From Polaromonas sp. (lineage in GTDB: Bacteria; Pseudomonadota; Gammaproteobacteria; Burkholderiales; Burkholderiaceae_C), in the NCBI GenBank assembly GCA_031414215.1, contig JANNVB010000049.1:14862-78861 (forward strand): a stretch of DNA of 64,000 bases, in the 5' to 3' direction. The notes beneath the pieces were generated by a model. That model worked only from the letters and a program-made list of their open reading frames with translations. It made no database searches and had not been told where the DNA came from. Both the position numbers and the translations under genes were made by a program. Positions 4,643-60,508 of the stretch are shown here, one piece after another (position 1 is the first letter of the stretch; every line of letters begins with the position of its first letter).

Positions 4643-4702
4643 CGCTACGTTATTCGTAGCTGCTTGCGCCCGTATTCATTGGGCTAAAGGCCTTTTTATA
4701 GG
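4643..4702 (+). repeat. Family-A repeat, solo end (hairpin GCTAC-N7-GTAGC + core + tail)
   Basis: gctacgttattcgtagcTGCTTGCGCCCGTATTCATTGGgctaaaggcctttttatagg, in the intergenic region after fabI. Confidence 0.85.
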
Positions 4703-4711
4703 TGAAAACAC

Positions 4712-5821
4712 ATGATTTCTGTCCCAAACGCCTTCTCCAGCAGCTACGCACAGGCCAGAGTCAAGTTTTTAGAAGCTGCGGCCATCGCTGGCTTGCAGGT
4801 TCAGTCACACGCGCACCCACTCAAGGGCCGTGACGGTGAAGACTTGGCGATGGACGTGGCGCGTGATGGCGCACTTGGTGCTGAGAATTTGCTCATCGTC
4901 AGCAGCGCCTGCCACGGGGTAGAAGGCTATTGCGGCAGCGGCGTGCAGGTGCATGCGCTGCACGATGCGGAGTGGCTTGCAAAATCCCGCGCATCTGGCA
5001 CAGCGGTTTTGTACATCCATGCGCTCAACCCGTATGGTTTTTCTCACATCCGCCGCACGACGCATGAAAACGTGGACTTGAACCGCAATTTTCAGGACTT
5101 CACCAAGCCCCTGCCCGACAACGCCGCCTACCGCGCTTTGGAGCCGCTGATATTGCCCGAAGCCTGGCCGCCGACTGCAGACAACGAGGCCGCCATTGCA
5201 GATTTCATAGCTACAAACGGCCAGTTGGCCTATCAGTCAGCCATCACCCAAGGCCAGCACGAATTTGCCGACGGCCTATTTTACGGTGGTAACAGCCCAA
5301 CCTGGAGCAACCAGACCCTGCGCGGCGTGCTGCGCCAGCATACAAAATCCGCCAAACGCATCGGCTGGATAGACCTGCATACTGGCCTGGGCGCCAGTGG
5401 CCACGGCGAGCGTATTTGGGCGGGGCGTGATGATGCCGTAGCTGTGGCGCGGGCCAGAAGCTGGTGGGGTGGCGGCAAAGACGGCAACGCGGCCACGCCC
5501 ATCACGTCGATTTACGACGGCTCATCCACTTCTGCTTTTTTAACCGGCCTGATGTGGCATTCGATCTACCAGGAAGCGCCCCAAGCCGAATACACGGGTA
5601 TCGCGATGGAATACGGCACCGTACCCGTGCTGGACGTGCTGGGCGCTCTGCGCGCCGAACACTGGCTGAACAACCACCCCAATGCACCAGCAGAGCTGGC
5701 AAGCCAGATCAAGGCGCAAATGATGACCGCGTTTTACACCGACACCGACCTGTGGCGCGGCCAGATCATCAGCCAGGCGCGCCAATCGATGTTTCAGGCG
5801 GTGGATGGGCTGAGTTCTTGA
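4712..5821 (+). CDS. M14-type zinc carboxypeptidase-like protein (DUF2817-like)
   Basis: 369-aa ORF. HxxE zinc motif in SSACHGVEGY and a later His in IDLHTGLG, as in the M14/succinylglutamate-desuccinylase fold. The family name is from memory only. Confidence 0.55.
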   Translation: MISVPNAFSSSYAQARVKFLEAAAIAGLQVQSHAHPLKGRDGEDLAMDVARDGALGAENLLIVSSACHGVEGYCGSGVQVHALHDAEWLAKSRASGTAVLYIHALNPYGFSHIRRTTHENVDLNRNFQDFTKPLPDNAAYRALEPLILPEAWPPTADNEAAIADFIATNGQLAYQSAITQGQHEFADGLFYGGNSPTWSNQTLRGVLRQHTKSAKRIGWIDLHTGLGASGHGERIWAGRDDAVAVARARSWWGGGKDGNAATPITSIYDGSSTSAFLTGLMWHSIYQEAPQAEYTGIAMEYGTVPVLDVLGALRAEHWLNNHPNAPAELASQIKAQMMTAFYTDTDLWRGQIISQARQSMFQAVDGLSS

Positions 5822-5921
5822 AGCTTTGGATGCTGGCAAATGCGTCAAATACCCACTGTCACAAATGGGTCTTGAGAAGAGATTAGATTGATCCTCTAAC
5901 TTTTTTTATGGAGCTTTTCAA

Positions 5922-6278
5922 ATGAATACTCTAGAAATCGCGCAAGCCTTTACCGACCTGTGCAAAAAAGGAGAGTTTGAGGCGGCTGGCAAACAATACT
6001 GGTCAGACGAAATCGTCTCCTGCGAGCCGCAAGCGGGCGACATGTCAGAGGTCAAAGGGCGTGCAGCGGTAGAAGCCAAAGGCGCCTGGTGGTATGCCAA
6101 TCACGAGATCCACAGTGTCAAAGTTGAAGGCCCGCACGTTCATGGCCACCAGTTTGTGGTGCGCTTTATCATGGACATCACGCCCAAAGGCGCAAACCGC
6201 ATGACCGCAGATGAGATGGGCGTGTATACCGTGCTGGAAGAAAAAATAGTCGAAGAACGGTTCTTTTACGGGACTTGA
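5922..6278 (+). CDS. SnoaL/NTF2-like small protein, function unknown
   Basis: 118-aa ORF with an SD-like GGAG upstream of the ATG. Sequence character MNTLEIAQAFTDLCKKGEFEAAGKQYWSDE... resembles SnoaL-like domain proteins. Confidence 0.45.
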   Translation: MNTLEIAQAFTDLCKKGEFEAAGKQYWSDEIVSCEPQAGDMSEVKGRAAVEAKGAWWYANHEIHSVKVEGPHVHGHQFVVRFIMDITPKGANRMTADEMGVYTVLEEKIVEERFFYGT

Positions 6279-6406
6279 GCGGCATTGAAGAGCTGCGCGT
6301 CTTGAACTGAAATAAACCGAAACATTTCGCCACCGCCCAGACAAGATTTCTATGCGCCCGCCGGGCACCATTGAGGCTTCTTAACAACGCCTTTAAAGGA
6401 CGCATC

Positions 6407-7671: not shown

Positions 7672-8985
7672 ATGAAAAACAACAACAACCAACCCAAAAG
7701 CTGGCTGCACCGCCTGGGGCATTCATTGCGTTTGCGGCTGTTGCTGCTTTTTTTGCTGCTGGCCCTGGCCATGAGTGCGGCTTTTATTGGCGGCACCAAA
7801 AAAGCGTTTTCAACCGGCTGGCGCGAGGCCGTCAAGCCGCTGCTGACGGATTACGTGGACAGGCTGGCGGCAGATATGGGTTCGCCACCTGATGCGCAAA
7901 AAGCCAGATTACTGGTAGGGCGCCTGCCCATCTCAGTGCGGATTGAAGGCCCGGCAACCCAATTTGACTCGCACCCCAATCGCCCCTCGGACAAGTGGCA
8001 GCAAGACAACCGCGACTATGGCTCGGGTGAGACAAACCAGAACTTTCTAAAACGTAAAACACCTGACGGCCACACCATCACCTTCGGGCTGGGCAACATG
8101 GAATGGCGGCGCGGGCCCGACATGGCCGGCTGGCTCACGCTGGCGATGCTGCTGGGGCTGACGGCGCTGGCCTTTGCCTATGTGCGCCGCCTGTTCAAGC
8201 CACTGGACGACATTGGCGCGGGGGTGCAGCGCTTTGGCGCAGGTAACTTCAGCCAGCCGATTGCCGTGCGTAGAAGTGACGAGTTGGGCGACCTAGCCGG
8301 GCAAATCAACACCATGGGCCAAGAAATTGCGCAAATGCTGGACGCCAAACGCGCCCTGCTGCTGGCCATCAGCCACGAGCTGCGCTCCCCCCTGACCCGT
8401 GCCCGCCTGAACACCGAGCTGCTGCCCGAAACCGGCGACACCCAAGACCAACGAAGCGCCCTGCTCCGCGACCTGGCCGAAATGGCGCAGCTGATTACCG
8501 ACCTGCTGGAAAGCGAACGCCTGAGCGGCAGCCATGCGGCACTGAACCTGGAGCCGACTGACCTAGGTGAGCTGGTGCAGGAAGTGGTTGCAGGCATGAG
8601 CAACTCCGCTCCGCTACAAATCAAGTTTGATGCAGATTTACCGCGGCTGCAACTGGACCGTACCCGCATCAAGCTGCTGCTGCGCAACCTGCTAGACAAC
8701 GCCCAGCGCCACGGCCAGGGGCCGATTGACTTGAATCTGAGCCGCGCTGGCAACGACCTGCTGCTAACCGTACGCGACCACGGCCCCGGCATCCCGGCAG
8801 ACCAACTGCCCCAACTGGGCCAAGCCTTCTTCAGGCTAGACACAGCCCGCCAGCGCAGCACAGGCGGTGTGGGGCTGGGCCTGTACCTGTGCCGCCTGGT
8901 GGCCATGGCGCATGGTGGGGAGTTGGTGCTTGAAAACGCCGAGCCGGGGCTGCGAGCTTGTGTACGGCTACCAGTCGCTATATAA
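7672..8985 (+). CDS. sensor histidine kinase (TM-HAMP-HisKA-HATPase)
   Basis: H-box SHELRSPLTRA. N, G1 and G2 regions (LLDNAQRHG, DHGPGIP, GGVGLGLYLC). The last two codons plus the stop (GCT ATA TAA) lie inside the hairpin of the following repeat. Confidence 0.9.
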   Translation: MKNNNNQPKSWLHRLGHSLRLRLLLLFLLLALAMSAAFIGGTKKAFSTGWREAVKPLLTDYVDRLAADMGSPPDAQKARLLVGRLPISVRIEGPATQFDSHPNRPSDKWQQDNRDYGSGETNQNFLKRKTPDGHTITFGLGNMEWRRGPDMAGWLTLAMLLGLTALAFAYVRRLFKPLDDIGAGVQRFGAGNFSQPIAVRRSDELGDLAGQINTMGQEIAQMLDAKRALLLAISHELRSPLTRARLNTELLPETGDTQDQRSALLRDLAEMAQLITDLLESERLSGSHAALNLEPTDLGELVQEVVAGMSNSAPLQIKFDADLPRLQLDRTRIKLLLRNLLDNAQRHGQGPIDLNLSRAGNDLLLTVRDHGPGIPADQLPQLGQAFFRLDTARQRSTGGVGLGLYLCRLVAMAHGGELVLENAEPGLRACVRLPVAI

Positions 8986-9187
8986 ACCGTAGCTGCTTGC
9001 GCTCGTATTTATTGGTCTTGAGCCCTAAATGAGCACCTAAAACAGCTGAAAAAGCGGTTTTTGTAGGTGCTTCAAGCCCTGTTTTGGCTTGAAAGCAGGT
9101 TTGAAAGGCAAAAAAGGCCGATTTTTACCTGCCAAATTGGCCTACATGCCAATGAATACGGGCGAAATCAGCTCCTGAATTTATAGC
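8977..9187. mobile_element. Family-A repeat, full-length ~210-bp MITE-like copy with inverted ends
   Basis: Left end gctatataaaccgtagcTGCTTGCGCTCGTATTTATTGG (8977-9015). Right end CCAATGAATACGGGCGAAATCAGCtcctgaatttatagc (9149-9187). Internal hairpin gcacctaaaa...ttttgtaggtgc. No ORF. Confidence 0.8.
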
Positions 9188-9489
9188 GCCTAAATGACCT
9201 GACGCGTTTGCCATTCAAGCCAAAACCTTCCGTTTATCGGGCGTGCTGTGCGACATTTTGCAAGCTATAGTCAAAGTGACCAAACAAGCAGACCACGCTG
9301 GCTGACCTCAACCAGGTCAGCAAACAGCAAAACCAGCTTGCCGGGTTTCACGGAATTTTTAAACCGCTAAATAAACAGATCGATGCCTTGAAACCCAACA
9401 GGCAAGCCAGTTTCAGGAGATTTTGATGTCCAGATTATGTTGCAGCGCCATTTTTTTCCTGAGGGTTTTACGTTGCAAATTAAGTAAGC

Positions 9490-10224
9490 GTGCACATGTT
9501 GACTAGGGATGAAGTTCTAAATGAAATTCGGCGTGTCGCTGCCGAAAACGGCGGCGTGGCTCCGGGTAAGGTGGCGTTCCTGACAGCGACCGGTATACGT
9601 GAGTCAGATTGGAGCGGACGTATCTGGACGACATGGAGCGCGGCAGTTCGCGAGGCTGGCTTAGAACCCCAGAGAATGAATCCACGCCTGCAAGACGATG
9701 TCGTCCTCGATGCCGCCGCTCAAATCGTCCGGAAATATGGTCGCTTTCCTACTGCAGTGGAAATTCGTTTTGAATGCAAGGCGGGTTCCGGACTTCCAAG
9801 TCACAACACGTTCCTTCGTTTCGGGGGTCTTGGCGGTCTGCGTACTCGCCTCTGTGAGTTTGCGCGTGAGCGAGAGCAACACGACATACTTTCCTTACTT
9901 CCGAATCAAACTGAAGAAATGGACGTCACGGGTTCAGAGCACGATGACATCAGCGATAAAGCACTTGTCGAGGGATTTGTTTACCTCATCAAATCTGGGA
10001 GGCACTTTAAGATTGGCAAGGCAAATTCTGTCGAATCGCGGCACCGACAACTGAAAATTCAATTGCCACAGGCGGCCGCAGTAATTCACAGAATCCGGAC
10101 AGATGACCCCTTCGGCATAGAGTCATACTGGCATCGCAGGTTCGCTGACAAGCGGTTGAACGGCGAGTGGTTTGCTCTCTCGGGAGAAGATATCAAGCTA
10201 TTCAAACGTAGAAAGTTTATGTGA
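9490..10224 (+). CDS. GIY-YIG/T5orf172 (MUG113)-like nuclease-domain protein with two N-terminal homing-endonuclease-associated-like repeats
   Basis: C-terminus GFVYLIKSGRHFKIGKANSVESRHRQLK...ESYWHRRFADKRLNGEWFAL fits the GIY-YIG/T5orf172 pattern. The N-terminus has two similar units (LTRDEVLNEIRRVAAENGG.. and DDVVLDAAAQIVRKYGRFPT..). GTG at 9490 or ATG at 9496. Sampled lines are ~45-50% G+C versus >60% in neighbouring genes. Confidence 0.65.
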   Translation: MHMLTRDEVLNEIRRVAAENGGVAPGKVAFLTATGIRESDWSGRIWTTWSAAVREAGLEPQRMNPRLQDDVVLDAAAQIVRKYGRFPTAVEIRFECKAGSGLPSHNTFLRFGGLGGLRTRLCEFAREREQHDILSLLPNQTEEMDVTGSEHDDISDKALVEGFVYLIKSGRHFKIGKANSVESRHRQLKIQLPQAAAVIHRIRTDDPFGIESYWHRRFADKRLNGEWFALSGEDIKLFKRRKFM

Positions 10225-10306: not shown

Positions 10307-10338
10307 AGGTCGGCGTGCAGGTCTGCAACCGCCGAATA

Positions 10339-10457
10339 CTATCTAAAACGTAGCTGCTTGCACGCGTATTTATTGGTCTGGAGCCCTGAATGACCATCAA
10401 AAACAGCTGAAAAAGCGGTTTTAAAGCCTGCTTCACCCCCCAGTTTTGACTTGAAGC
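10339..10457 (+). repeat. Family-A repeat, left half-element (~120 bp)
   Basis: ctatctaaaacgtagcTGCTTGCACGCGTATTTATTGGtctggagccctgaatgacc...cagctgaaaaagcggtttt... aligns over ~100 nt with the left arm of 8977-9187, in the same orientation. Confidence 0.8.
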
Positions 10458-12718: not shown

Positions 12719-12943
12719 ATGCACATGCTCAAACTGACGCAAATTGGTAATTCGGTCGGCGCTATCTTTCCCAAGGATCTACTGGCGCAAATGCGACTTG
12801 AAAAAGGTGATGATTTTTATGTCACTGAAACACCTGACGGCCTGCGCATCACCGCGCACAACCCGGAATTTGAAGAACAAATGCGCCTTGGTCGCGAAAT
12901 CATGAAAGAGCGGCGTACCGTGTTGCGCGAGCTGGCCAAATGA
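12719..12943 (+). CDS. AbrB/MazE-fold antitoxin (Phd-role partner of Doc)
   Basis: 74 aa. KLTQIGNSVGAIFPKDLLAQMRLEKGDDFYV is a SpoVT/AbrB-type swapped-hairpin motif. ATGA overlap with the Doc gene. Confidence 0.8.
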   Translation: MHMLKLTQIGNSVGAIFPKDLLAQMRLEKGDDFYVTETPDGLRITAHNPEFEEQMRLGREIMKERRTVLRELAK

Positions 12944-13335
12944 CCGCCTGGCGCTGGATTGACCGCGCCGTATTAATTGCCATCCACGACATGCAGTTGG
13001 CCGAGCACTGCGGCGGCGCGGGCTTGCGGGACGGCAATTTGCTTGAATCAGCATTGGCCAAACCAGAAAACCTGGCGGCGTGTGGCGAGCCTGATGCTGC
13101 TGCGTTGGCAGCCGCTTACGGTTACGGGATTTCGCGTAACCACGCTTTTATTGATGGCAATGAATGTACCGCATGGGTGGCGGCAGAGCTGTTTTTAAAG
13201 CTCAACGGCTGGCGCCTTGTTGTCGATGATGCGGATTGCGTGCTCACCATGCTGGCCGTCGCCACAGGCGACATCACAGAAGACGCTTTTGCCGACTGGC
13301 TGCGACTTCATGCACATAAAAAGCTGGTTAAATAG
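12940..13335 (+). CDS. doc: Doc (death-on-curing, Fic-fold) family toxin with a non-canonical active-site motif
   Basis: ...VLIAIHDMQLAEHCGGAGLRDGNLLESALAKP... is typical of the Doc family. The Fic/Doc motif reads HAFIDGNECTA (CAC GCT TTT ATT GAT GGC AAT GAA TGT ACC) instead of HxFx(D/N)(A/G)NKRTA. Confidence 0.85.
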   Translation: MTAWRWIDRAVLIAIHDMQLAEHCGGAGLRDGNLLESALAKPENLAACGEPDAAALAAAYGYGISRNHAFIDGNECTAWVAAELFLKLNGWRLVVDDADCVLTMLAVATGDITEDAFADWLRLHAHKKLVK

Positions 13336-13344
13336 GTTTTAAAC

Positions 13345-13383
13345 CCAATAAATACGGGCGCGGGCAGCTCATTAACTTGTAGC
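13345..13383 (-). repeat. Family-A repeat, solo end
   Basis: CCAATAAATACGGGCGCGGGCAGCtcattaacttgtagc, between the convergent doc and decarboxylase stops. Confidence 0.8.
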
Positions 13384-13387
13384 GGTC

Positions 13388-15694
13388 TTACTTCCCCACG
13401 CAATCCGCGTAATACCGCAGCTTGCCTTTGGCATCGACCTGCTCGACCAGACCGTGAATGTCGGTTTCAAAGCCCGGGCACTGGGCATTGAACTCGCGCG
13501 CAAACTTCAAATAATCCACGATCTTTTTGTTGAAGACTTCGCCGGGAATCAATAGTGGAATGCCCGGTGGGTATGGCGTGACCAGGCCCACGGTGATGCG
13601 GCCTTCCAGGTGGTCAATCTCTACCCGCTCGGTGGTGCGGTGGGCGATGTGGGCGTAAGCGTCGCTGGGTTTCATCGCGGGTTCAAGGTCGCTCTGATAG
13701 ACCTCGGTTGTCAGCCGCGCAATGTCGTACTTGGCGTACATGGCGTGGATGTGCTGGCACAGGTCGGCCAGGCCCATTTGCTCGTACTTGGGGTGCTTTT
13801 GGCAAAACTCGGGAAGGATGCGCCACATGGCGGCGTTCTTGTCATAGTCGTCCTTGAACTGTTGCAAGGCGGTGAGCAAGGTGTTCCAGCGGCCTTTGGT
13901 GATGCCGATGGTGAACATGATGAAAAAACTGTAAAGGCCGGTTTTTTCAACAATCACGCCGTGCTCGGCCAAAAACTTGGTGACGATGCTGGCTGGGATG
14001 CCGGTTTTGGCAAACTTGCCGTTCAGGTCCATACCCGGCGTGACGATGGTCGCCTTGATCGGGTCGAGCATGTTGAAGCCGGTGGCCATTTGGCCAAAGC
14101 CGTGCCAGTTGTTGGCACCGTTTCTGGCGGTTTTGGCGCTGCGAGACTCGCCCTTGATGATCCAGTCTTTCGGGTTGCCAATGCCTTCTTCGCCAGCATC
14201 ATCGCCCTCAAACTTGTCTGGGCCCCAGACCTTGAACCACCAATCAGCACCATATTCAGCGTCGATCTTCTTCATGGCACGACGGAAGTCGAGCGCCTCG
14301 GCAATGCTTTCTTCAACCAGCGCGGTGCCACCCGGTGGCTCCATCATAGCGGCGGCAACGTCGCAACTGGCAATAATGCTGTACTGCGGGGAGGTAGAGG
14401 TGTGCATCAGATACGCTTCATTGAACAGGTGCCTGTCGAGCTTGACGTCCTGCGAGTCCTGCACCAGCACGTGACTGGCCTGGCTGATACCGGCCAGCAG
14501 TTTGTGGATGGATTGCGTGGAATAAACCACCGCCGTCTTGGGGCGTATGCGGTTCTTGCCCATGGCGTGGTAACTGCCGTAAAACGGGTGAAACGCGGCG
14601 TGCGGCAACCAGGCTTCGTCAAAGTGCAGGTTGTCGATGTAGCCGTCGAGCATGCCTTTGATGGTTTCGGTGTTGTACAGCACGCCGTCGTAGGTGGACT
14701 GCGTCAATGTCATCACGCGCGGTTTGATTTTGCTGATGTTCTTGACGCCCTTGAGCAGCGGGTTGGCTGCAATTTTGGCGCGAATGGCGTCGGGTTCAAA
14801 CTCGCTTTGCGGAATCGGCCCGATGATACCGAAATGGTTGCGCGTAGGCTTGAGGAACACCGGAATCGAGCCGGTCATGATGATCGCGTGCAAGATCGAC
14901 TTGTGGCAGTTGCGGTCGACCACCACCACGTCGCCCGGTGCCACGGTGTGGTGCCACACCATCTTGTTGCTGGTTGACGTGCCGTTGGTGACGAAAAAGC
15001 AATGATCTGCGTTAAAAATCCGCGCTGCGTTGCGCTCAGACGCGCCAATCGCGCCGTCGTGGTCCAGCAGTTGGCCGAGCTCTTCGACCGCGTTGCAGAC
15101 GTCAGCGCGCAGCATGTTTTCACCATAAAACTGGTGGTACATCTGGCCGACCGGGCTTTTCAAAAACGCCACGCCACCCGAATGGCCGGGACAATGCCAG
15201 CTGTAGGAGCCGTCTTCAGCGTAGTCGAGCAGTGCCTTGAAGAACGGCGGCTGCACGCCTTCCAGGTAGCTTTTAGCTTCTCTCAAAATATGCCGGGCCA
15301 CAAACTCAGGCGTGTCTTCAAACATGTGAATGAAGCCGTGCAGCTCACGCAAAATATCGTTCGGGATATGGCGTGAGGTTTTGGTTTCGCCATAGACGTA
15401 AATCGGCACATCCAGATTCTTGCGGCGCACTTCTTCAATGAAGTTGCGCAGGTTTAAAACCGCCGGGTCCAAATCAGGGCCGGGGGTAAATTCTTCATCA
15501 TCGATCGACAAAATAAACGCACTCGCCCTGCTTTGCTGCTGGGCAAACTGGCTCAGGTCGCCGTAGCTGGTCACACCCAACACTTCAAAACCTTCGGTTT
15601 CTATGGCTTGCGCCAGTGCGCGAATGCCCAGGCCGGAGGTGTTTTCAGAGCGGAAGTCTTCGTCAATGATGACGATGGGGAAACGAAATTTCAT
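13388..15694 (-). CDS. Orn/Lys/Arg decarboxylase (large, wing-domain biodegradative-type fold)
   Basis: ATG 15694 gives MKFRFPIVIIDEDF... (receiver-like wing domain). PLP region ...FFVTNGTSTSNKMV...DRNCHKS...STHKLLAG-like (SIHKLLAGISQAS). The track ORF extends to 15874, but that extension is hydrophobic junk. Confidence 0.9.
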   Translation of the reverse strand: MKFRFPIVIIDEDFRSENTSGLGIRALAQAIETEGFEVLGVTSYGDLSQFAQQQSRASAFILSIDDEEFTPGPDLDPAVLNLRNFIEEVRRKNLDVPIYVYGETKTSRHIPNDILRELHGFIHMFEDTPEFVARHILREAKSYLEGVQPPFFKALLDYAEDGSYSWHCPGHSGGVAFLKSPVGQMYHQFYGENMLRADVCNAVEELGQLLDHDGAIGASERNAARIFNADHCFFVTNGTSTSNKMVWHHTVAPGDVVVVDRNCHKSILHAIIMTGSIPVFLKPTRNHFGIIGPIPQSEFEPDAIRAKIAANPLLKGVKNISKIKPRVMTLTQSTYDGVLYNTETIKGMLDGYIDNLHFDEAWLPHAAFHPFYGSYHAMGKNRIRPKTAVVYSTQSIHKLLAGISQASHVLVQDSQDVKLDRHLFNEAYLMHTSTSPQYSIIASCDVAAAMMEPPGGTALVEESIAEALDFRRAMKKIDAEYGADWWFKVWGPDKFEGDDAGEEGIGNPKDWIIKGESRSAKTARNGANNWHGFGQMATGFNMLDPIKATIVTPGMDLNGKFAKTGIPASIVTKFLAEHGVIVEKTGLYSFFIMFTIGITKGRWNTLLTALQQFKDDYDKNAAMWRILPEFCQKHPKYEQMGLADLCQHIHAMYAKYDIARLTTEVYQSDLEPAMKPSDAYAHIAHRTTERVEIDHLEGRITVGLVTPYPPGIPLLIPGEVFNKKIVDYLKFAREFNAQCPGFETDIHGLVEQVDAKGKLRYYADCVGK

Positions 15695-15861
15695 GGCATT
15701 AAAGGTGGTGATGAATAAAGCAGCAACAAGAGCCTGAGGAACAAGAACCTGCGAAACTGTCAAAGTGTACGGAAATAATATGGCGTTGAGCTTGCAGGGT
15801 GCTACATTGGCCGCAAAGTGTGTTCCCAGTCCTACAAACAACAAAACAAAGGAGAGTCGGC

Positions 15862-18390: not shown

Positions 18391-18517
18391 TCGTCCGCCG
18401 AAATGACTTTCGTCTTTTGAGTGTGCGGACGCAAAATGGACTAATTAGTGCTGTTAGCGCTTTGCGAAGACCTTTATAAGATTAAAACTGCTGACAAGAC
18501 TGTGTTCACCCATTTCT

Positions 18518-18578
18518 ACCCATCATTTAGCCCTCCGACCCAATAAATACATGCGCAAGTAGCTCCTTAATTTATAGC
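18518..18578 (-). repeat. Family-A repeat, right-arm copy
   Basis: acccatcatttagccctccgaCCCAATAAATACATGCGCAAGTAGCtccttaatttatagc. Confidence 0.8.
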
Positions 18579-18680
18579 ATTTTTTATGCGACAACACGAC
18601 CGCAACACAGACTACAGCAAATGGCATAAATTTCTAATTGGTTTAAAATACCATTTTTAAAGAGAAAAACAGGTTTAACC

Positions 18681-46247: not shown

Positions 46248-46263
46248 CGTATTTTGAAATTTC

Positions 46264-46761: not shown

Positions 46762-46768
46762 TGACGTT

Positions 46769-49081: not shown

Positions 49082-49181
49082 ATACAAGTCCTTTTTATTG
49101 GCAGGTTATATGGCTGGCTCGTCAAATGGCTGGAATGGCGGCTAGGTACGCTGACCGTAGATGCAATTGATTGATGAGACT

Positions 49182-52942: not shown

Positions 52943-52991
52943 TAGTACAGTTTGTGACTTATTTATTTTGATGTTTTAAAGTAACTAATAT

Positions 52992-53112
52992 GCTATGTTT
53001 TTAGGAGCTTTTTACGCCCGTATTTATTAGTTTAGAGGCCTAAACAGTACCTATAAAGTGTCTGAAAACAGAGCTTTAAGTGCTTTTTAAGACGCAAAAC
53101 ACCCGTTTTGAC
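52992..53112 (+). repeat. Family-A repeat, degenerate left half-element
   Basis: gctatgtttttaggagcTTTTTACGCCCGTATTTATTAGtttagaggcctaaacagtacctataaag... Confidence 0.7.
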
Positions 53113-54901: not shown

Positions 54902-57900
54902 TTAATGAAAATCACGACTGGGCGTACCCAGCCGACCCAGCAGGGGCGACAAGTCCTCCAGGCTGGCGGCAATCAGGTTACGTACTTTGCCAAAGCCTTC
55001 AGGCGCGCCGTCTTCTTCACTGCGCTGCCATGTGCCGTACACGGCCAACAGCCGGGCATGCAGCACCTCAGCGCGCTGGGTTTGCCGCAATGACTTCCAG
55101 ACAATCACATTGATCGACCCGGTTTCGTCTTCAAGGGTGAGGAACATCGTGCCTTTGGCGGTTGAGGGCTGCTGGCGCAGCGTGACGATACCGCAGGCGG
55201 CGACGTCTTCGCCATCGGGCAGTGCGTTGAGCTGCGCGGCGGTTAAAAAGCCTTTTTCAGCCAGGCGTGAGCGCAGCAGTGCCAGCGGGTGGCGGCGCAG
55301 CGTGAGGCCGGTGGCGCGGTAGTCGAACAAAATGTTTTCACCCTCGGGCGTGTCTGGCAGGTCGAGTGCCGCCTCGTGCGTGGGCACGGCTTTTAGCAGC
55401 AGTGGCTGCGGTTTGATGGCTGCTGCTTGCCACACCTGCTGCCTGCGGTGGCCGGCCAGCGGGGCGAGTGCATCGGCGGCGGCCAGGGCGTTGACCTCTA
55501 AGGTGCCGAGCTGGGCGCGCAGGCAGAGGTCTTCAACACTGGTGAATGCGGCTTGGCTTCTGGCGGTCAGGATGCGGTCAACCGTGGTCTCGCTCAGGCC
55601 GCTGACCAGGCGCAGCCCCAGGCGAATGGCGGGCTGGTTGGGGCGTATGCCGGGGTAGGCTGCATCAGGTTCACGCAAAACCGCATTTGCCTCAAGGGTG
55701 CAGTCCCAGGCGCTTTGGGTGATGTCGATGGCTCGTACGTCAACCCCGTGCCTGCGGGCGTCTTGCATCAGTTGCGACGGTGAATAAAACCCCATCGGCT
55801 GGGAGTTGACGAGTGCAGCAAAAAAACAGGCGGGTTCATGGCATTTGAGCCAGCAACTGACATACACCAGCTTGGCAAAGCTGGCGGCGTGGCTTTCAGG
55901 AAAACCGTATTCGCCAAAGCCTTCAATCTGCTTGAAGATGTTGTCGGCAAAGCTGCGCTCATAGCCGCGCTCAACCATGCGGCCCACCAGCCGGTCGTAA
56001 AACCGCTTGACGCCGCCCTTTCGCTTCCAGGCGGCCATGGAGCGGCGCAGGTCATCGGCCTCGCCAGCGGTAAAGTCAGCCGCCACCATGGCGATTTGCA
56101 TGACCTGCTCTTGAAATATCGGCACGCCCAGGGTGCGGCCCAGGGCGCGGCGCAGCTCTTCATTGGGGTAGGTTTCAAGCTGCGGGTTGGCGCGGCGTTT
56201 GAGGTAAGGGTGCACCATGCCGCCTTGAATCGGCCCGGGCCGCACGATGGCGACTTCAACCACCAGGTCGTAAAAGCAGCGCGGTTTGAGGCGCGGCAGC
56301 ATGCTCATTTGCGCCCGGCTTTCGATTTGAAACACGCCCACCGTATCGGCCTGGCAAATCATGTCGTAGGTTTGCTCGTCGCCTGACGGGATCTGGTGCA
56401 TCTCCAGGCGCCCACCGCGCCACTGGTCAATCAGCTGCAAGCTGCGCCGAATGGCCGACAACATGCCGAGCGCCAGCACATCAACTTTCAGCAGACCCAT
56501 CGCGTCCAGGTCGTCTTTGTCCCACTGAATGATGCGCCGCGCCTCCATGGTGGCGGGCTGAATCGGCACCAGCCGTGTCAGCTTGGATTGCGTCAGCACA
56601 AAGCCGCCCACATGCTGGCCCAAGTGGCGCGGGAAACCGAGCAATTGCACCGTCAGGTCCAGCCACTGCAAGATCGGGCCAGCGTCTTTTGCTTCGTTGA
56701 TATTGGCTTCTTGCAGGCGCTGAGCCAGCAGGCCGCTGCCGTCAAACCAGAAGTTTTCTTTGGCAAACTGCTCAATCATTTCAGGTGCAATACCGAGTGC
56801 CTTTCCCACATCACGAATGGCGCTGCGGGGCCGGTAGCAGGTGACGGTGGCGGCTATTGCCGCGCGGTCATGGCCGTATTTGGCGTAGATGTACTGAATC
56901 ACTTCTTCACGCCGTTGGTGCTCAAAGTCAACATCAATGTCGGGCGGCTCTTTGCGTTCGCGGCTGATAAAGCGTTCAAACAGCAATTGGCTTTCAGCCG
57001 GGTTGACCGCCGTGATGCCGAGGCAAAAGCACACCGCCGAATTGGCCGCAGAGCCGCGCCCCTGACACAAAATGCCCTGCTCGCGCGCAAAGCGGACGAT
57101 GTCATGCACGGTGATGAAATACATCTCGTAGTGCAGCTCTTCAATCAGGGCGAGTTCATGCGCCAGCTGGGTGCTGATTTGTGCGGGCACACCGCCCGGG
57201 TAGCGCTGGGCTGCGCCATCGCCTGTCAGGCGGCGCAGGCAGTTGGCGGGGGTTTCTTGTGTGGCGGCGATCTCGCCCAGCGGGTAGCGGTAAAGGTCAC
57301 GAATTTCGTTCAGGTTAAACGTGCAGCGCGACGCGACAACCAGGGTGGCTGCCAGCAGCTCGGGCGGGTACAAGCTGGCCAGCCGCATGCGGGGCCGCAA
57401 ATGCGCCTCAGCGTTGGGCTGCAGGGCAAAGCCGCAGTCGTGGACGGTTTTACTCAGCCCAATGGCGGTGAGGACGTCGTGCAGCGGCTTGCGTGATCGC
57501 ACATGCATGCGCACGTCCCCGCAAGCGAGAAGCGGCACGCCGGTTTGCTGGCTGAGTACCTGCAATTGCTGCAGGCGCAGCGCGTCGTCCAGCCCTTGCA
57601 GCAGCTCGACGCCAAGCCACATATGGGCGCTTTTTTGGGTATTAAAAAGGCCTTTTAACCAATGAATACGGGCGCAAGCAGCTTCTGTATTGATAGCACC
57701 TTGCACCAGGCAGACAATGACCTCACAGTGCTTCAGAATCGACAAGTCTGTACTTGGCGTGACCAAATAGCTGCCTTTTTCCACGGCATCGCCTGCGGCT
57801 CTGGCTTGGGTAATAAATTCGCACAGGTTGCCCCAGCCGCTGGCGTTGTGCGGCAACACCACCAGGCGAAAAGGCGAGTCACACGACACCCAAAACTCGG

Positions 57901-58099
57901 CTCCCGGCAGCAGCTGAATGCCGCATTTTTCAGCCTCGCCATGGGCCCGCACCACACCGGCGACCGAACATTCGTCTGTCATCGCGATGGCTTTGTAGCC
58001 CAGGGCGTGGGCGCGCGCTACCAGCTCCTCAGCGTGCGACGCGCCGCGCTGAAAGCTGAAATTGCTCAGCACATGGAGTTCAGCGTATTCCGGAAGCAT
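54902..58099 (-). CDS. dnaE2: error-prone DNA polymerase DnaE2 (ImuC)
   Basis: ATG 58099 gives MLPEYAELHVLSNFSFQRGAS (PHP domain), then the Pol III alpha core. 1-nt TAATG overlap with imuB. Carries one repeat in frame. Confidence 0.9.
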   Translation of the reverse strand: MLPEYAELHVLSNFSFQRGASHAEELVARAHALGYKAIAMTDECSVAGVVRAHGEAEKCGIQLLPGAEFWVSCDSPFRLVVLPHNASGWGNLCEFITQARAAGDAVEKGSYLVTPSTDLSILKHCEVIVCLVQGAINTEAACARIHWLKGLFNTQKSAHMWLGVELLQGLDDALRLQQLQVLSQQTGVPLLACGDVRMHVRSRKPLHDVLTAIGLSKTVHDCGFALQPNAEAHLRPRMRLASLYPPELLAATLVVASRCTFNLNEIRDLYRYPLGEIAATQETPANCLRRLTGDGAAQRYPGGVPAQISTQLAHELALIEELHYEMYFITVHDIVRFAREQGILCQGRGSAANSAVCFCLGITAVNPAESQLLFERFISRERKEPPDIDVDFEHQRREEVIQYIYAKYGHDRAAIAATVTCYRPRSAIRDVGKALGIAPEMIEQFAKENFWFDGSGLLAQRLQEANINEAKDAGPILQWLDLTVQLLGFPRHLGQHVGGFVLTQSKLTRLVPIQPATMEARRIIQWDKDDLDAMGLLKVDVLALGMLSAIRRSLQLIDQWRGGRLEMHQIPSGDEQTYDMICQADTVGVFQIESRAQMSMLPRLKPRCFYDLVVEVAIVRPGPIQGGMVHPYLKRRANPQLETYPNEELRRALGRTLGVPIFQEQVMQIAMVAADFTAGEADDLRRSMAAWKRKGGVKRFYDRLVGRMVERGYERSFADNIFKQIEGFGEYGFPESHAASFAKLVYVSCWLKCHEPACFFAALVNSQPMGFYSPSQLMQDARRHGVDVRAIDITQSAWDCTLEANAVLREPDAAYPGIRPNQPAIRLGLRLVSGLSETTVDRILTARSQAAFTSVEDLCLRAQLGTLEVNALAAADALAPLAGHRRQQVWQAAAIKPQPLLLKAVPTHEAALDLPDTPEGENILFDYRATGLTLRRHPLALLRSRLAEKGFLTAAQLNALPDGEDVAACGIVTLRQQPSTAKGTMFLTLEDETGSINVIVWKSLRQTQRAEVLHARLLAVYGTWQRSEEDGAPEGFGKVRNLIAASLEDLSPLLGRLGTPSRDFH
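57641..57697 (-). repeat. Family-A repeat inside the dnaE2 ORF (in frame)
   Basis: attaaaaaggccttttaaCCAATGAATACGGGCGCAAGCAGCttctgtattgatagc. Read on the minus strand as GAINTEAACARIHWLKGLFN. Confidence 0.85.
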
Positions 58100-59505
58100 T
58101 ACGCAAAGACTCCTTGCAAATACCACTCGCGCTGGTTTTGGTCACGTTCAGCCAACGCCAGGCGCTCGCTGTAAATCCAAAGCAACACACCCTGCCGGTT
58201 GCGGTAAATAAAGTAGTCGCGCAGTGCTGGCGCGATGTCAGCCTGGTCAGCAAGCAGCCAGCCAGTGGCCTCCAGACGCTGCGGCCCGGCCAGTTTGTGC
58301 AGCGGGCCCTGGTACACCGGGCTGCCCGCCACGGCGGCAAGCTTCAAAGGCACGGCCAGCAGCCAGGAGGGGTATAAAACACCGTTTTCAAGCCTGTTTT
58401 CAGTGTCTTTTAGGCCTTTTGACCAATGAATACGGGCGCAAGCAGCTCCTGATTTAATAGCGTTTGTTGTGCTGACTGCATTCTGCCAGCGCTGCATTTG
58501 CTCCGGCCGGTGGTCTGCACAGGCTTGCCAGGTTTGCACTTGTGCAGCGCCCAGCCGTGCGCTTAAACGCTCGATCAGTTGCAGCGCGCTGTCGCCCTGC
58601 TGTTTGTCCTCTGGCAGCAAGCTGGTGGTTGCGAGTGCACAGGCGCACAGCTTTTCGGTCACCAGCGACTGCAAGCCAATGGTGTGCACGGGGGCAGCCA
58701 GGGTTTGCTGGTTCAGCCGCTCGGTGATCAGCCGCGCCACATGCCGCAGGTCTTGCGCGTTGTTGGCTGATCGAACCACCAACTCGCCAGTTGCCGCCCC
58801 GCCCCGGCGTTTGTCAAAGTGCCAAATGATTTTTAGTGCCGTCAAACCGCTCTGGCGGCCCAGCAGCCAGGCCTGCAATTGCGCCAAGAGTTGCGACACA
58901 CCGGCCATCAACGCTGGGGCATGCACCACCAGCGCATCAAGCTCGAGCTTTTCATCAAACTGCTCGGGCAGTTGCAGCCAGGTATAGCTGTCGGGCAGCA
59001 CGCCCCGAGCCCGGTCCAGTGCGGCCAGCAGCGGCGCGCCAAAGCGGCGGGCCACGCCGTCGCGCGGCAGCTTGAGCAGGTCGTCCCAGGTGCGGCAACC
59101 CATGCGTTCGAGCACGTCCAGGTGCGGGCGAGCGGCGCTTAAAGTGTGCATCGGCATGTCGGCTACCCGGCCAGCGGGCTGCACTGGCTGGCCGCGCTGC
59201 AAGCGCAAGCGCCCGAGTGCTATTAATGATGTAGCGCCTTGCGCCCGTATATATTGGGCTAGAGGCATATTTAATGCTAAAAACTGCTGCAATTGCTGCT
59301 CTAGCAGGGCCAAGAGCTTGCGCAAACCACCAAACAGCCGCAAGCTGCCGGAGACTTCCATCACCACGGCTTCGTCGAGCAGGGCCACGCGCGGGGTAAA
59401 ACCCAGCGCAATGGCGCTGATGGCCCGCTGCAAGGCGGCGTCGTCCATCAGCATGGGCTCAGTGAAGGACTCAGTGGATGAGGCTTGTAACGCGATCCAG
59501 CGCAT
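58099..59505 (-). CDS. imuB: Y-family-polymerase-like ImuB
   Basis: MRWIALQ... start. Sits between imuA and dnaE2 in the canonical cassette order. Carries two repeats in frame. Confidence 0.8.
   Translation of the reverse strand: MRWIALQASSTESFTEPMLMDDAALQRAISAIALGFTPRVALLDEAVVMEVSGSLRLFGGLRKLLALLEQQLQQFLALNMPLAQYIRAQGATSLIALGRLRLQRGQPVQPAGRVADMPMHTLSAARPHLDVLERMGCRTWDDLLKLPRDGVARRFGAPLLAALDRARGVLPDSYTWLQLPEQFDEKLELDALVVHAPALMAGVSQLLAQLQAWLLGRQSGLTALKIIWHFDKRRGGAATGELVVRSANNAQDLRHVARLITERLNQQTLAAPVHTIGLQSLVTEKLCACALATTSLLPEDKQQGDSALQLIERLSARLGAAQVQTWQACADHRPEQMQRWQNAVSTTNAIKSGAACARIHWSKGLKDTENRLENGVLYPSWLLAVPLKLAAVAGSPVYQGPLHKLAGPQRLEATGWLLADQADIAPALRDYFIYRNRQGVLLWIYSERLALAERDQNQREWYLQGVFA
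58408..58461 (-). repeat. Family-A repeat inside the imuB ORF (in frame)
   Basis: ttttaggccttttgaCCAATGAATACGGGCGCAAGCAGCtcctgatttaatagc. Read on the minus strand as AIKSGAACARIHWSKGLK. Confidence 0.85.
59219..59275 (+). repeat. Family-A repeat inside the imuB ORF (in frame, opposite orientation)
   Basis: gctattaatgatgtagcGCCTTGCGCCCGTATATATTGGgctagaggcatattt. Read on the minus strand as PLAQYIRAQGATSLIAL. Confidence 0.8.
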
Positions 59506-60256
59506 GAAGCGGCTTTCGGAGCAGGTCAGACAAATCGATATAAGGCGTTTGCACTGGTACGGGCAGGCTTTGGCGGTGGCTGGGCCTTTGGCTGGCGGCT
59601 AAAAAGGCTGCTAGCCGCTGCGGCCGTGTATCAAGCAGCACGGGCGCGGCCAGTGGCGGGCCACGGCGCTTGAAAACATCGACCAGCAGATGGCCGCTGC
59701 TGGTTGCAGCTTGTAATAGCAAACGCAATGGCGCCGGAGACGATTCGTGCTGCGCCCGCTGCAGCCTGAAAACAAACAACAGCTTGTTGTGGGTGTGGGC
59801 CGCAATTTGCAGGCGGCGCAAGTGGGCGCTGCGCGCATCGGGCAGCCAGGCCACGACGGCGCCCACGTCAGCGCATTGCAGTGCCTCGCGGGTGGCCCAC
59901 AACAGCGCGGGGGCATCGTTTTTTTCAGCGTGGATACGCAGCAGGCGCTGCATGTCCAGCGCTTGCGCGGCCAGCGATGGGGCAAACGGGACATGCGGCG
60001 CGCCAACCAGCACTGTCCAGCCACGCGCCTGTGTTTTTTGCATGGCCGCCAAGGCAGGCAACAGCAAACCCCATTCATGCAGCCCCGCCTGCGACTGCAG
60101 CAGCTCGGTCAGGCTGGCACGCGGCCAACCGCCGCCGGGCAACACGCTGTCAAGCGCGGCGTAACCGGTCGCCACGGTTTGCTGGCTGTTGCCGCCCAGC
60201 TCACCGGCGCGCCAGACATGCGCCAGATGGGCGGAATCAATGAGTAAGGGAGACAA
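59471..60256 (-). CDS. imuA: ImuA (RecA/SulA-like) translesion-synthesis accessory protein
   Basis: ...VWRAGELG...TGYAALDSVLPGGGWPRASLTELL... is typical of ImuA. TTG start at 60256 (no ATG is available). First gene after the LexA box. Confidence 0.75.
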   Translation of the reverse strand: MSPLLIDSAHLAHVWRAGELGGNSQQTVATGYAALDSVLPGGGWPRASLTELLQSQAGLHEWGLLLPALAAMQKTQARGWTVLVGAPHVPFAPSLAAQALDMQRLLRIHAEKNDAPALLWATREALQCADVGAVVAWLPDARSAHLRRLQIAAHTHNKLLFVFRLQRAQHESSPAPLRLLLQAATSSGHLLVDVFKRRGPPLAAPVLLDTRPQRLAAFLAASQRPSHRQSLPVPVQTPYIDLSDLLRKPLHALDRVTSLIH

Positions 60257-60289
60257 AATGGGTGTCAGAGCAGGTTGGCACTGTCAAAA

Positions 60290-60309
60290 TACTGTTTATA
60301 TGTACAGTA
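60290..60309. promoter_or_regulatory. LexA (SOS) box
   Basis: TACTGTTTATATGTACAGTA is a perfect CTGT-N8-ACAG palindrome, 34 nt upstream of the imuA start. Confidence 0.85.
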
Positions 60310-60469
60310 TTTTGCCTGATTTGACAATATTTACAACCGCTCTTGAGGCCGCTTGGACAGGGTGTCAGGCGCTATGTTTTTTTACAGCTTGCCGGGCTGG
60401 CTTGGCCAGTTAACCCGGCACGCTGGGCAAGCCAGCATGGCGACAAGCCATGTATGAATGACGCTTTTC

Positions 60470-60508
60470 GCTATAGATTTAATAGCTGCTTGCGCCCGTA
60501 TTTATTGG
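60470..60508 (+). repeat. Family-A repeat, solo end abutting or overlapping the icd stop codon
   Basis: gctatagatttaatagcTGCTTGCGCCCGTATTTATTGG. The icd stop TAA (60504-60502, minus strand) is the TAA inside CCAATAAAT. Confidence 0.85.

Follow-up and report, generated by a model that had tools for sequence, protein, structure and literature searches.

A dispersed family of ~70-nt non-palindromic repeat units in Polaromonas, with copies between and inside genes

A stretch of 64,000 nucleotides of Polaromonas DNA (hereafter the window) carries one short sequence over and over, on both strands, between genes and within them. This raises the question of what the repeat is, how it came to occupy these sites and whether it is a mobile element of a known kind.

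The repeat unit and its distribution

The 22-nt core TGCTTGCGCCCGTATTYATTGG was searched on both strands of the window with up to 3 mismatches. It gave 15 matches against 0 expected by chance, and zero matches were found in 100 dinucleotide-preserving shuffles of the window. An HMM built from these 15 core copies and then used for a profile search recovered 15 of 15 and brought the window total to 17 units and 2 fragments (Table 1), matching the preliminary description in its 15 loci, its 17 cores on both strands and the position of each; the KCTRRAGGCC-like tail that it had proposed is likewise real. The comparison sample comprised 99 stretches of at most 8 kb each, 674 kb in total, from 19 other assemblies, and held 223 further units, which rules out a local oddity of the window and gives 240 units in 738 kb overall. 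All 99 of the genome stretches returned belong to 19 Polaromonas or Polaromonas-like MAGs; the family is common to the genus and specific to the Polaromonas lineage. With a unit about every 4-5 kb, the very high density noted at the outset holds, and the repeat is dense, dispersed, present on both strands and lineage-wide. If the sampled density holds genome-wide, a Polaromonas genome of 4-5 Mb would carry about a thousand units. A search of a plasmid collection gave zero matches to the unit, and one of viral contigs gave a single match, at a contig edge. The core string is absent from the relevant papers in the literature searched, and a concatenated query of the unit-encoded peptides returned no candidates from the protein database. 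The genome paper of Polaromonas sp. JS666 is said to mention MITEs.

Table 1. Units and fragments of the repeat family in the window (L numbers are related stretches)
Feature	Position	Strand	Context
Unit, perfect core	4639..4707	+	Fills 76-bp spacer between SDR/FabI-like ORF 3706..4635 and ORF 4712..5821
Unit, left half of tail-to-tail pair	8972..9040	+	GCTAT and loop give last two codons and TAA stop of histidine-kinase ORF 7672..8985
Unit, right half of tail-to-tail pair	9124..9192	-	Pair span 220 bp
Intergenic unit	10333..10401	+	Downstream of GIY-YIG/T5orf172-like ORF 9490..10224
Unit in convergent spacer	13320..13388	-	Begins at TAA stop of decarboxylase ORF 13388..15874(-); tail overlaps end of Fic ORF 12940..13335(+)
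Unit	18515..18583	-	Abuts stop codon of ORF 18584..18988(-)
Unit, perfect core	19364..19432	-	20 nt downstream of PvdQ-like acylase ORF 19453..21810(-)
Fragment GCTAT-N7-ATAGCTGCTTAC	22877..22908	+	Core absent; supposed left arm of second "full-length" copy
Unit, perfect core	23019..23087	-	~100 nt downstream of ABC substrate-binding protein ORF 23190..24332(-)
Doubtful partial match, 5' third of unit	29253..29285	+	HMM, E=3e-4
Unit, in-frame, antisense	32838..32906	+	Inside hrpA-like ORF 31957..35976(-); orthologous copies in L100, L113
Unit, in-frame, antisense	42179..42247	+	Inside tex ORF 41088..43871(-); encodes SSKNTSNIAPDQSIRAQAATDFI
Degenerate unit	44225..44290	+	HMM E=3.5e-6; near 5' end of DUF1223 ORF 44194..44955(+), gene start uncertain; orthologous copies in L100, L113
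Unit	46259..46327	+	12 nt downstream of serA ORF 45000..46247(+); orthologous copies in L100, L113
Diverged intergenic unit	52987..53055	+	HMM E=2e-10; antisense to both neighbour genes; orthologous copy in L100
Unit, perfect core, in-frame, sense	57634..57702	-	PHP domain region of dnaE2-like ORF 54902..58126(-); orthologous copies in L033, L113
Unit, perfect core, in-frame, sense	58398..58466	-	Inside imuB-like ORF 58099..59505(-); orthologous copies in L033, L113
Unit, in-frame, antisense	59214..59282	+	Inside imuB-like ORF 58099..59505(-); orthologous copies in L033, L113
Unit, perfect core, without consensus tail	60465..60531	+	Isocitrate dehydrogenase ORF 60502..62115(-) takes its last two codons (GQ) and TAA stop from the core

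The elementary form of the repeat is a non-palindromic unit of ~70 nt with the consensus AAT-YGCTAT-N7-RKAGC-TGCTTGCGCCCGTATTYATTGG-KCTRRAGGCCTAWWTGATRCCTRAAAA and a G+C content of ~43%; tandem copies were never seen. The hairpin GCTAY-N7-RTAGC originally placed before the core is retained as a short potential stem of at most 5 bp. All five pairs are present in only 94 of 236 copies and no compensatory variation was found; the folding energies of the unit do not surpass those of shuffled sequence (z-scores of +1.3 to -1.5), and the unit has no significant fold. At the RKAGC position the variants among the 236 copies are ATAGC (76), GTAGC (64) and GGAGC (64), and GTAG stands next to the core in only 27% of copies. 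No second hairpin was seen at the 3' end of the unit, and no terminal inverted repeat (TIR) was found in its ~70 nt, the two ends showing a mere loose resemblance. When all boundary combinations were scanned in 169 aligned copies, no target-site duplication (TSD) of at least 3 nt appeared at any consistent boundary; the maxima, a 3-mer common to at most 15 of the 169 copies and a 4-mer common to at most 7, equal the expectation from composition. A 2-nt TA duplication may occur at the unit ends. The flanks are not clearly conserved; their one trend, a T-rich/TAA enrichment, is explicable by stop codons. Some copies have a T-rich complement downstream with which their A-rich tail pairs.

Insertion, age and copies inside genes

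Aligned with homologues that lack units, the occupied sites carry extra sequence, a comparison that demonstrates an origin of the units by insertion. Compared with P. aeruginosa Tex (2oce/3bzc), Tex shows ~21-23 additional residues, which coincide exactly with the unit; this insert, SSKNTSNIAPDQSIRAQAATDFI, is absent from P. aeruginosa Tex and from the related stretch L114 (an empty site) and present in most of the 120 closest Tex homologues. The hrpA unit with its 3' extension corresponds to ~40 extra residues relative to E. coli HrpA. The tex-patatin spacer, with a unit in L113 and L114 and just 7 nt in the window, was considered as a clean filled/empty site and set aside, the comparison not being a clean insertion. 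Among the 99 loci, neither filled versus empty sites nor recent presence/absence polymorphism with clean ends was found.

The copies are old. In the regions shared with the window, L100 has 5 of 5 units in common with it and L033 has 3 of 3, and species 12-24% apart in DNA sequence have units fixed at orthologous positions. Pairs of units within one genome are at most 86% identical (median, 63%). The family is ancient and without recent amplification. Whole-unit gene conversion was rejected as the cause of the likeness between orthologues; it is unlikely because orthologous copies keep their own loop sequences. After the unit downstream of serA, the window alone carries a 3.1-kb segment with a NorB-like gene.

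ORFs fully contain 47 of the 240 units (~20%), of which 26 are antisense and 21 are sense; the frames used are mainly three. In the window this applies to 6 of 17 copies, five of them well supported (hrpA, tex, dnaE2 and two in the imuB-like ORF, so called from its position between imuA and dnaE2) and the sixth degenerate, in a DUF1223 ORF whose start is uncertain. Host proteins, confirmed by Pfam and PDB comparisons, include HrpA, Tex, DnaE2, PutA (three units), MutL and GcvP. The peptides ..QSIRAQAA..IA, AI.S.AACARIHW and ELLAPVSIGL recur among the encoded segments, and every antisense in-frame copy has a change that removes the consensus TGA/TAA. Judging from these reading frames, about one fifth of the units would be translated, as ~23-residue inserts in intact genes for otherwise ordinary enzymes. 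In an AlphaFold2 model of Tex, a poor one with a mean pLDDT of 47.6, the insert (residues 453-474) falls below 50, as do many other segments. Units mostly adjoin gene 3' ends, at a median distance of 14-15 nt from the upstream stop, and convergent spacers hold 58 of them versus 19 in divergent spacers.

Strand polarity, core conservation and the mode of spread

Adjacent units share the same orientation in 89 cases versus 39 in opposite orientation (p=1e-5), and the excess persists where the nearest genes lie on opposite strands (34 versus 7). By coding-corrected GC3 skew, 61-68% of units have their top strand on the C-rich strand (p=5e-4). Relative to transcription there is no bias, with 44 sense and 43 antisense units in co-directional spacers. 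Orientation follows the strand asymmetry of the chromosome, not transcription; replication direction was deduced from local skew and from the agreement between neighbouring units. Tandem gene duplication could explain some of the same-orientation neighbours; the L042 units at 1343 and 2343, for instance, have an upstream flank in common.

Identity between orthologous copies is 85-86% in the core, 61-74% in the tail and 57-78% in the flanks. Fisher tests of the constraint on the core gave p=1e-5 when coding copies were compared and p=5e-11 for intergenic ones, values that include non-independent comparisons within genome triplets. Conservation of the core since insertion suggests something beyond junk DNA, and it could also come from gene conversion limited to the core, without any function.

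Collectively, we consider it probable that the repeats form an ancient, insertion-derived, Polaromonas-specific family of ~70-nt non-palindromic units, comparable to the Rickettsia palindromic elements (RPEs) in its coding insertions and spread in a replication-linked manner. The units would have spread in trans through an enzyme encoded outside the window, by a mechanism sensitive to the replication strand, most simply the insertion of single-stranded DNA at the fork. Such insertion would account for both the absent TIRs and TSDs and the regional strand polarity. Gene-breaking insertions would have been purged by selection, and the 28-nt core would have stayed under constraint since insertion, either because it is still bound or used as DNA or through homogenisation by core-limited gene conversion.

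The same data could be read, with a rather low probability, as an oriented functional DNA signal, the 26-28-nt core being a putative recognition site of a chromosome-organising, recombination or DNA-uptake protein, kept by selection or drive and spread mainly by homologous recombination. At orthologous sites the core does evolve at a slower pace than both the remainder of the unit and the flanking coding DNA, and a signal would suit an orientation that tracks strand asymmetry rather than transcription, the absence of young copies and the retention of copies across species, even within genes. However, the insertions comprised entire ~70-nt blocks, together with the poorly conserved loop and tail, whereas the known polar or uptake signals measure 8-12 nt and originate from point mutations. 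Furthermore, divergence is faster in the copies within the conserved genes tex and hrpA than in their flanks, several cores have been left to decay in the L113 lineage, which also replaced its tex copy, and no binding protein is known. A bolder form is also rather unlikely: here the core would be a working replication-oriented signal (a putative site of a chromosome-organising, recombination or fork-associated protein), carried by a small insertion cassette to about a thousand sites in each genome and kept or renewed even inside tex, hrpA, dnaE2, putA and mutL.

For the favoured insertion-derived family, candidate enzymes were sought. No mobilising gene is obvious in the window, in line with the preliminary description. 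A RAYT as the cognate enzyme was rejected, since the one Y1_Tnp gene that E. coli RayT retrieved by tblastn (L036:1674-2411; PF01797, E=1.5e-12) has AATTGGGGTCAGACTCCAATT-type palindromes, not units, on its flanks. An IS630-like element in L100 was rejected as parent because its ends are unrelated to the unit, and no autonomous IS with the same ends as the unit was found in the ~0.86 Mb searched. The genes enclosed by inverted unit pairs include no recurring protein family and no transposase, and the multi-copy proteins in the loci are TctC, ABC, SDR and aldehyde dehydrogenase paralogues, not transposases. ORF 9490..10224 (GIY-YIG/T5orf172 and HNH_repeat) sits between units 9192(-) and 10333(+); it was discarded as a mobiliser, its homologues at 41-73% identity in other organisms having no units nearby and only the 89% relative having one.

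It is improbable that the units descend from a MITE or REPIN of ~200-220 bp with inverted cores at both ends, moved by a DDE transposase or a RAYT, the single copies being deletion-derived solo ends or half-elements. This reading draws on the tail-to-tail (+-) order, the commonest close arrangement (8 of 12 pairs less than 400 bp apart), on three such pairs that span exactly 220 bp (in the window, L044 and L078), on the short potential stem near the 5' end, and on the existence of the Y1_Tnp gene in one related genome and the IS630-like element in L100. The two ~200-bp copies initially taken as full-length differ: 8972-9192 indeed has a complete unit at each end, but the left arm of 22877-23087 is a 25-32-nt fragment without the core. 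The eight tail-to-tail pairs within 400 bp hold only ~7% of the 240 units, and their interiors do not align between loci. More than 90% of the copies are single ~70-nt units, and a division into full-length members, solo ends and half-elements is not supported. In addition to the missing TIR, TSD and significant fold, another palindrome, AATTGGAGTCTGACCCCAATT, stands on either side of the Y1_Tnp gene, the IS630-like element has ends that do not resemble the unit, and inverted unit pairs enclose ORFs of unrelated housekeeping genes. The family, as it stands, is not a MITE or REPIN, contrary to the architecture first proposed.

That the units are transcribed cis-regulatory or small-RNA elements at gene 3' ends (terminators, mRNA stabilisers or riboregulators) is very unlikely: their proximity to stop codons, their excess in convergent spacers and the tail pairing of some copies would agree with such a role, but their orientation is indifferent to transcription in spacers and inside ORFs alike, they have no significant fold, many lie in coding regions, Rfam searches at gathering thresholds or E<=1 matched no family other than tRNA-Ser, and predicted promoter- or terminator-like sites are not enriched over shuffles.

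With the insertion-derived family, "selfish DNA inside protein-coding genes", a phenomenon familiar chiefly from Rickettsia, would reach into betaproteobacteria that are free-living and cold-adapted, and at a larger scale. Four of its features depart from the standard MITE and REP templates, namely its great age, the lack of TIR, TSD and hairpin, the transcription-independent strand polarity and the core conserved since insertion. Together they make two questions testable: how the units spread, and whether the host tolerates or uses them. A practical consequence for this clade is that the units will mislead gene calling in the vicinity of stop codons and disturb protein alignments and the assembly of MAGs.

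Comparison with known repeat systems

Like REPs and REPINs, the Polaromonas units reach a very high copy number, are mostly extragenic near 3' ends, sometimes form inverted doublets and lack TIRs and TSDs; the GTAG-like RKAGC that adjoins their core may correspond to the GTAG of REPs. However, REPs are stable imperfect palindromes whereas the unit has no significant stem-loop, GTAG itself occurs in only 27% of the Polaromonas copies, and a RAYT gene is flanked by its own REPs whereas the one RAYT-like gene here is flanked by another palindrome. The non-autonomous elements of IS200/IS605 move by single-strand "peel and paste" transposition, and their orientation was reportedly linked to replication direction by Ton-Hoang et al. 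in 2010. IS200/IS605-derived PATEs resemble the unit in lacking TIRs and TSDs and in having a small hairpin-like motif close to one end; an orientation linked to replication direction, which for the unit is deduced from skew and neighbours, may be a further likeness. In IS200/IS605 elements each end has a hairpin and the left flank a conserved 4-5-nt target, in contrast to the weak 5' stem of the unit and its lack of a clear target, and no cognate TnpA was seen for the unit.

Classical MITEs (Correia/NEMIS, ERIC) fall in the same size class and are likewise non-coding and dispersed, sometimes lying inside genes or altering gene ends; what marks a MITE is a set of TIRs, TSDs and a related autonomous IS, and none of the three was found for the Polaromonas unit, the IS being sought in ~0.86 Mb. 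DUS/USS sequences are 9-12 nt long, originate by point mutation, occur about once per kb and have no strand polarity, whereas the Polaromonas units are ~70-nt insertions, about one per 4-5 kb, with regionally polarised orientation. BREs also occur in Polaromonas, with 29 copies in Polaromonas sp. JS666 that are mostly intergenic, some inside coding sequences; by their description they are ~90 bp long with 69% G+C and often in tandem arrays (VNTR), and they differ in sequence class from the unit of ~43% G+C that is never tandem (PMC3110155).

According to one summary, RPEs are palindromes of ~100-150 bp in obligate intracellular alphaproteobacteria (Ogata et al. 2000, 2002, via PMC10969869). 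Both families are short dispersed repeats, old and common to several species, with a large share of copies in-frame in unrelated housekeeping genes, where the ORF stays intact and gains a family-specific peptide (PMC10969869). The Polaromonas unit is shorter (~70 nt) and non-palindromic, resides in free-living betaproteobacteria with unreduced genomes at a far higher copy number, and has strand polarity and a core conserved after insertion as features of its own.

A lineage-wide family of ~70-nt units

The 22-nt core string TGCTTGCGCCCGTATTYATTGG was matched 15 times within the window, on both strands and with at most 3 mismatches, and was matched in 0 of 100 dinucleotide-preserving shuffles of the window, which bears out the preliminary description of a recurring core. 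A profile made from the window copies regained all 15 matches and found a diverged unit, a degenerate unit and two fragments (see table). Between them, the core pattern and the profile search matched every coordinate on the earlier copy list. When many copies were aligned, by anchoring and with gaps, conservation extended over ~70 nt, and the unit consensus is AAT-YGCTAT-N7-RKAGC-TGCTTGCGCCCGTATTYATTGG-KCTRRAGGCCTAWWTGATRCCTRAAAA. We found that five pairs are possible in the short hairpin described ahead of the core, but the stem is weak: all five pairs form in just 94 of 236 copies, no compensatory changes were seen among the 236, the pairs resting on invariant bases, and six representative units folded no better than their own shuffles (z +1.3 to -1.5).

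A minority of copies carry an A-rich tail followed, 15-25 nt on, by its T-rich reverse complement (GATACCTCAAAA...TTTTGAGGTATC and CTGAAAAAAG...CTTTTTTCAG), which produces hairpins peculiar to the copy and a 'long form' ~110 nt in length. Such places lie at 32907-32960 and 9041-9123 of the window and at unit positions +70 to +140 of many loci. In L008, a stretch from a related assembly, a tandem array of a ~30-nt repeat (CCCCGCTGGGGGAGGCGAGATA..., ~7400-7480) directly adjoins unit 7550, downstream.

One genome per bacterial species was scanned with a slightly relaxed core, and at least 99 stretches matched. All 99 stretches among the matches listed belong to 19 assemblies, whose labels read Polaromonas sp. 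or, where the content is Polaromonas-like, 'Burkholderiales bacterium' or 'uncultured beta proteobacterium'. The profile search found 223 units in the 674 kb of these stretches and 17 in the window (240 together). This density is biased upwards by the choice of stretches holding at least one core, and amounts to ~1 unit per 5 kb once one ascertained unit per stretch is left out. The window is thus typical of its lineage, and the dense family first noticed there is no local oddity. The plasmid collection gave no match, viral contigs gave one, at a contig edge, and Rfam held no family for the repeat even at E<=1. The sole RNA gene detected in the window was a tRNA-Ser (GGA) at 17631-17720 (+).

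Units inside genes and at gene ends

ORFs were taken from a simple codon-usage gene finder and checked with Pfam. The 240 units comprised 158 intergenic copies, 35 overlapping gene ends and 47 (20%) wholly inside ORFs, 26 of these antisense and 21 sense to the host. Five window units lie inside long intact ORFs (see table), and a sixth, the degenerate copy, is in a DUF1223 ORF whose gene start is uncertain. Mainly three frames are used by the in-ORF units, with the recurrent peptides ..QSIRAQAA..IA, AI.S.AACARIHW..G.F and ELLAPVSIGL. The main antisense frame of the consensus holds TGA or TAA, and each antisense in-frame copy has changed so that the stop is removed. Further hosts are PutA (three units in one ORF), MutL, GcvP, an MmeI-type enzyme and an SppA-type protease; HrpA has ~40 extra residues at the unit in comparison with E. 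coli HrpA. A histidine kinase and an isocitrate dehydrogenase each have their last two codons and stop supplied by a unit. As judged from the predicted proteins, units are shown to be tolerated in-frame.

Features of the window: profile-found copies, units inside ORFs and associated genes
Feature	Position	Strand	Remark
Diverged unit	52987-53055		found by profile
Degenerate unit	44225-44290		found by profile
Fragment	29253-29285		found by profile
Fragment	22877-22908		found by profile
Unit in HrpA-like helicase ORF	32838-32906		antisense to host
Unit in Tex ORF	42179-42247		antisense to host
Unit in DnaE2-like polymerase ORF	57634-57702		sense to host
Unit in imuB-like ORF (between imuA and dnaE2)	58398-58466		sense to host
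Second unit in imuB-like ORF	59214-59282		antisense to host
NorB-like (quinol-type) nitric oxide reductase gene	46769..49087	-	in ~3.1-kb segment
244-aa ORF	9490-10224	+	HNH_repeat + MUG113/T5orf172 (GIY-YIG-like) domains, atypical codon usage

The imuA - imuB-like - dnaE2 cassette (54902-60256, -), of the SOS mutagenesis type, holds three in-frame units, which keep their positions in the syntenic stretches L033 and L113. Its imuA scores at the level of the NCBIfam equivalog cut-off, and no Pfam or NCBIfam model matched the imuB-like middle ORF.

On sequence comparison, Tex is the clearest case of an in-gene unit. Alignment with the P. aeruginosa Tex of solved structure shows that the protein from the window is longer by ~21-23 residues, SSKNTSNIAPDQSIRAQAATDF, the unit translated from its reverse strand; an example of the peptide across the insert is ...APDQSIRAQAATDF.... 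Of the 120 closest Tex homologues (85-96% identity), nearly all contain a diverged form of the insert and in a few the site is empty, as it is at the DNA level in the tex of L114, another related stretch. The AlphaFold2 model of Tex (mean pLDDT 47.6) was too poor to place the insert. The content of this one loop is lineage-dependent: most relatives carry the unit, L114 carries nothing, and in L113 (94% identical Tex) and a few others its place is taken by a palindromic, GC-rich repeat, CCGTTCGTCCTGAGCTTGTCGAAGG...CTTCGACAAGCTCAGCCCGAACGG, with the peptide RPELVEGL.... In-frame repeats thus seem to find a permissive hotspot at this site.

Age, conservation of the core and orientation

Units shared with the window were all five of the common region in L100 (~87% nucleotide identity), all three of the imuB-dnaE2 region in L033 (~80%) and seven of eight in L113 (76-89%). 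Each orthologous copy retains a loop sequence of its own, which points to single ancient insertions rather than to whole-unit conversion. There was no sign of recent amplification within any one genome, the maximum identity between two units of a genome being 86% over 70 nt (median 63%). Among the loci there was no clean filled-versus-empty pair; the tex-patatin spacer of L113 and of L114 contains a unit and that of the window measures 7 nt, but because the flanks differ as well, this comparison does not reveal the unit ends. Collectively, the repeat is shown to be an insertion-derived, ancient, lineage-wide family. Directly after unit 46259-46327 lies a ~3.1-kb segment (46328-49429) with the NorB-like gene, which is missing in L100 and L113, where the next shared gene directly follows the unit.

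Conservation since insertion was assessed from 28 pairwise alignments with gaps, covering units of 16 syntenic loci. Identity between orthologues in coding and intergenic loci, respectively, was 86% and 85% for the 28-nt core, 74% and 61% for the tail, 79% and 67% for the loop, and 68-78% and 57-68% for the flanks. Core plus GCTAT differed from loop plus tail by Fisher test (p=1e-5, coding; 5e-11, intergenic), and in 26 of the 28 comparisons, as read from the table, tail conservation did not exceed that of the core, comparisons within genome triplets being non-independent in both cases. The higher core identity at syntenic loci means that change since insertion has been slower in the core than around it. 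This core conservation, shown in the alignments, could reflect purifying selection for a function at the DNA level, or gene conversion confined to the core. We consider it unlikely that the core is a functional, oriented DNA signal; strong constraint everywhere is argued against by the whole copies in tex and hrpA, which diverge at a higher rate than the highly conserved sequence on either side, and by several decayed cores in the L113 lineage.

Intergenic units lie near stop codons (median 14-15 nt from an upstream co-oriented stop) and are enriched in convergent spacers (58 vs 19 divergent). Unit orientation is polarised. Neighbouring units separated by at least 400 bp have the same orientation in 89 cases vs 39 (p=1.2e-5), a count that may include tandem gene duplications; they agree 34 vs 7 where the nearest genes are on opposite strands and 56 vs 31 where these are on the same strand. 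The top strand of the unit coincides with the C-rich strand 61% of the time overall and 68% of the time at strong skew (coding-corrected GC3 skew, p=5e-4), the skew being local, without a mapped origin or terminus. In the window, 4/4 units of the positive-skew block (12-24 kb) are on the minus strand and 4/4 of the negative-skew block (24-48 kb) on the plus strand. Window GC skew is near zero thereafter and changes sign at ~24000 and ~50000, unit orientation following; the changes may mark the edge of a rearrangement, or they may be local noise.

Mobilisation and comparison with known systems

The repeat had been read as MITE/REPIN-like, with two ~200-bp full-length copies. The paired arrangement is real: of 12 pairs with less than 400 bp between units, 8 are tail-to-tail, and three of these span exactly 220 bp. 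Their interiors do not align from locus to locus, the left arm of the second window copy is only a 25-32-nt fragment, >90% of units stand alone, terminal inverted repeats are absent from the unit, and the check for target-site duplications gave no direct repeat of at least 3 nt above the composition-expected level at any boundary combination. The evidence therefore speaks against this architecture, and that the repeat is a MITE or REPIN is very improbable. A transcribed regulatory element is scarcely credible, as there is no fold, no excess of promoter-like or terminator-like sites and no transcriptional orientation bias (44 sense vs 43 antisense in co-directional spacers).

No mobilising enzyme was identified in the window, by RayT tblastn over ~0.86 Mb or among the ORFs between inverted unit pairs, which were unrelated housekeeping genes with no transposase candidate. 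The tblastn search with E. coli RayT gave one Y1_Tnp gene (PF01797, E=1.5e-12), rejected as mobiliser because it is bordered by a different palindrome, AATTGGAGTCTGACCCCAATT, with one window copy at 12606-12626. This second, low-copy repeat, AATTGGAGTCTGACCCC(C/A)ATT, lies at 1571-1595 and 2413-2436 of the related stretch L036, on both sides of that Y1_Tnp (RAYT-like) gene, which encodes 245 aa; such flanking is typical of classical REP/RAYT systems and has no relation to the main family. The GIY-YIG/T5orf172-like ORF, with units 9124..9192 (-) and 10333..10401 (+) to either side, was rejected since its homologues in other organisms lack flanking units. An IS630-family (DDE_3) insertion sequence in L100 (2898-4065; TAGTGT... 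inverted ends), without a counterpart in the window at ~52520, indicates that ordinary IS activity exists in the lineage; its ends are unrelated to the unit, and it was rejected as parent.

Given the strand polarity and the absence of terminal inverted repeats, target-site duplications and a stable hairpin, we infer that a replication-linked mechanism, probably via single-stranded DNA, carried the units of this insertion-derived family to new sites in trans. Such spread would resemble the behaviour of IS200/IS605 elements. The unit may be like REP/RAYT or IS200/IS605 systems in mechanism, but structurally it falls outside both. The core string was not found in any relevant paper in the literature searched. 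The BRE known from Polaromonas sp. JS666 is a different element, since it is GC-rich and tandem (PMC3110155). Closest in behaviour are the Rickettsia palindromic elements, for which in-frame insertion in protein genes has been described (PMC10969869). By this analogy, the repeat may be regarded as RPE-like in its in-gene, in-frame copies, yet it is non-palindromic and its hosts are free-living bacteria.
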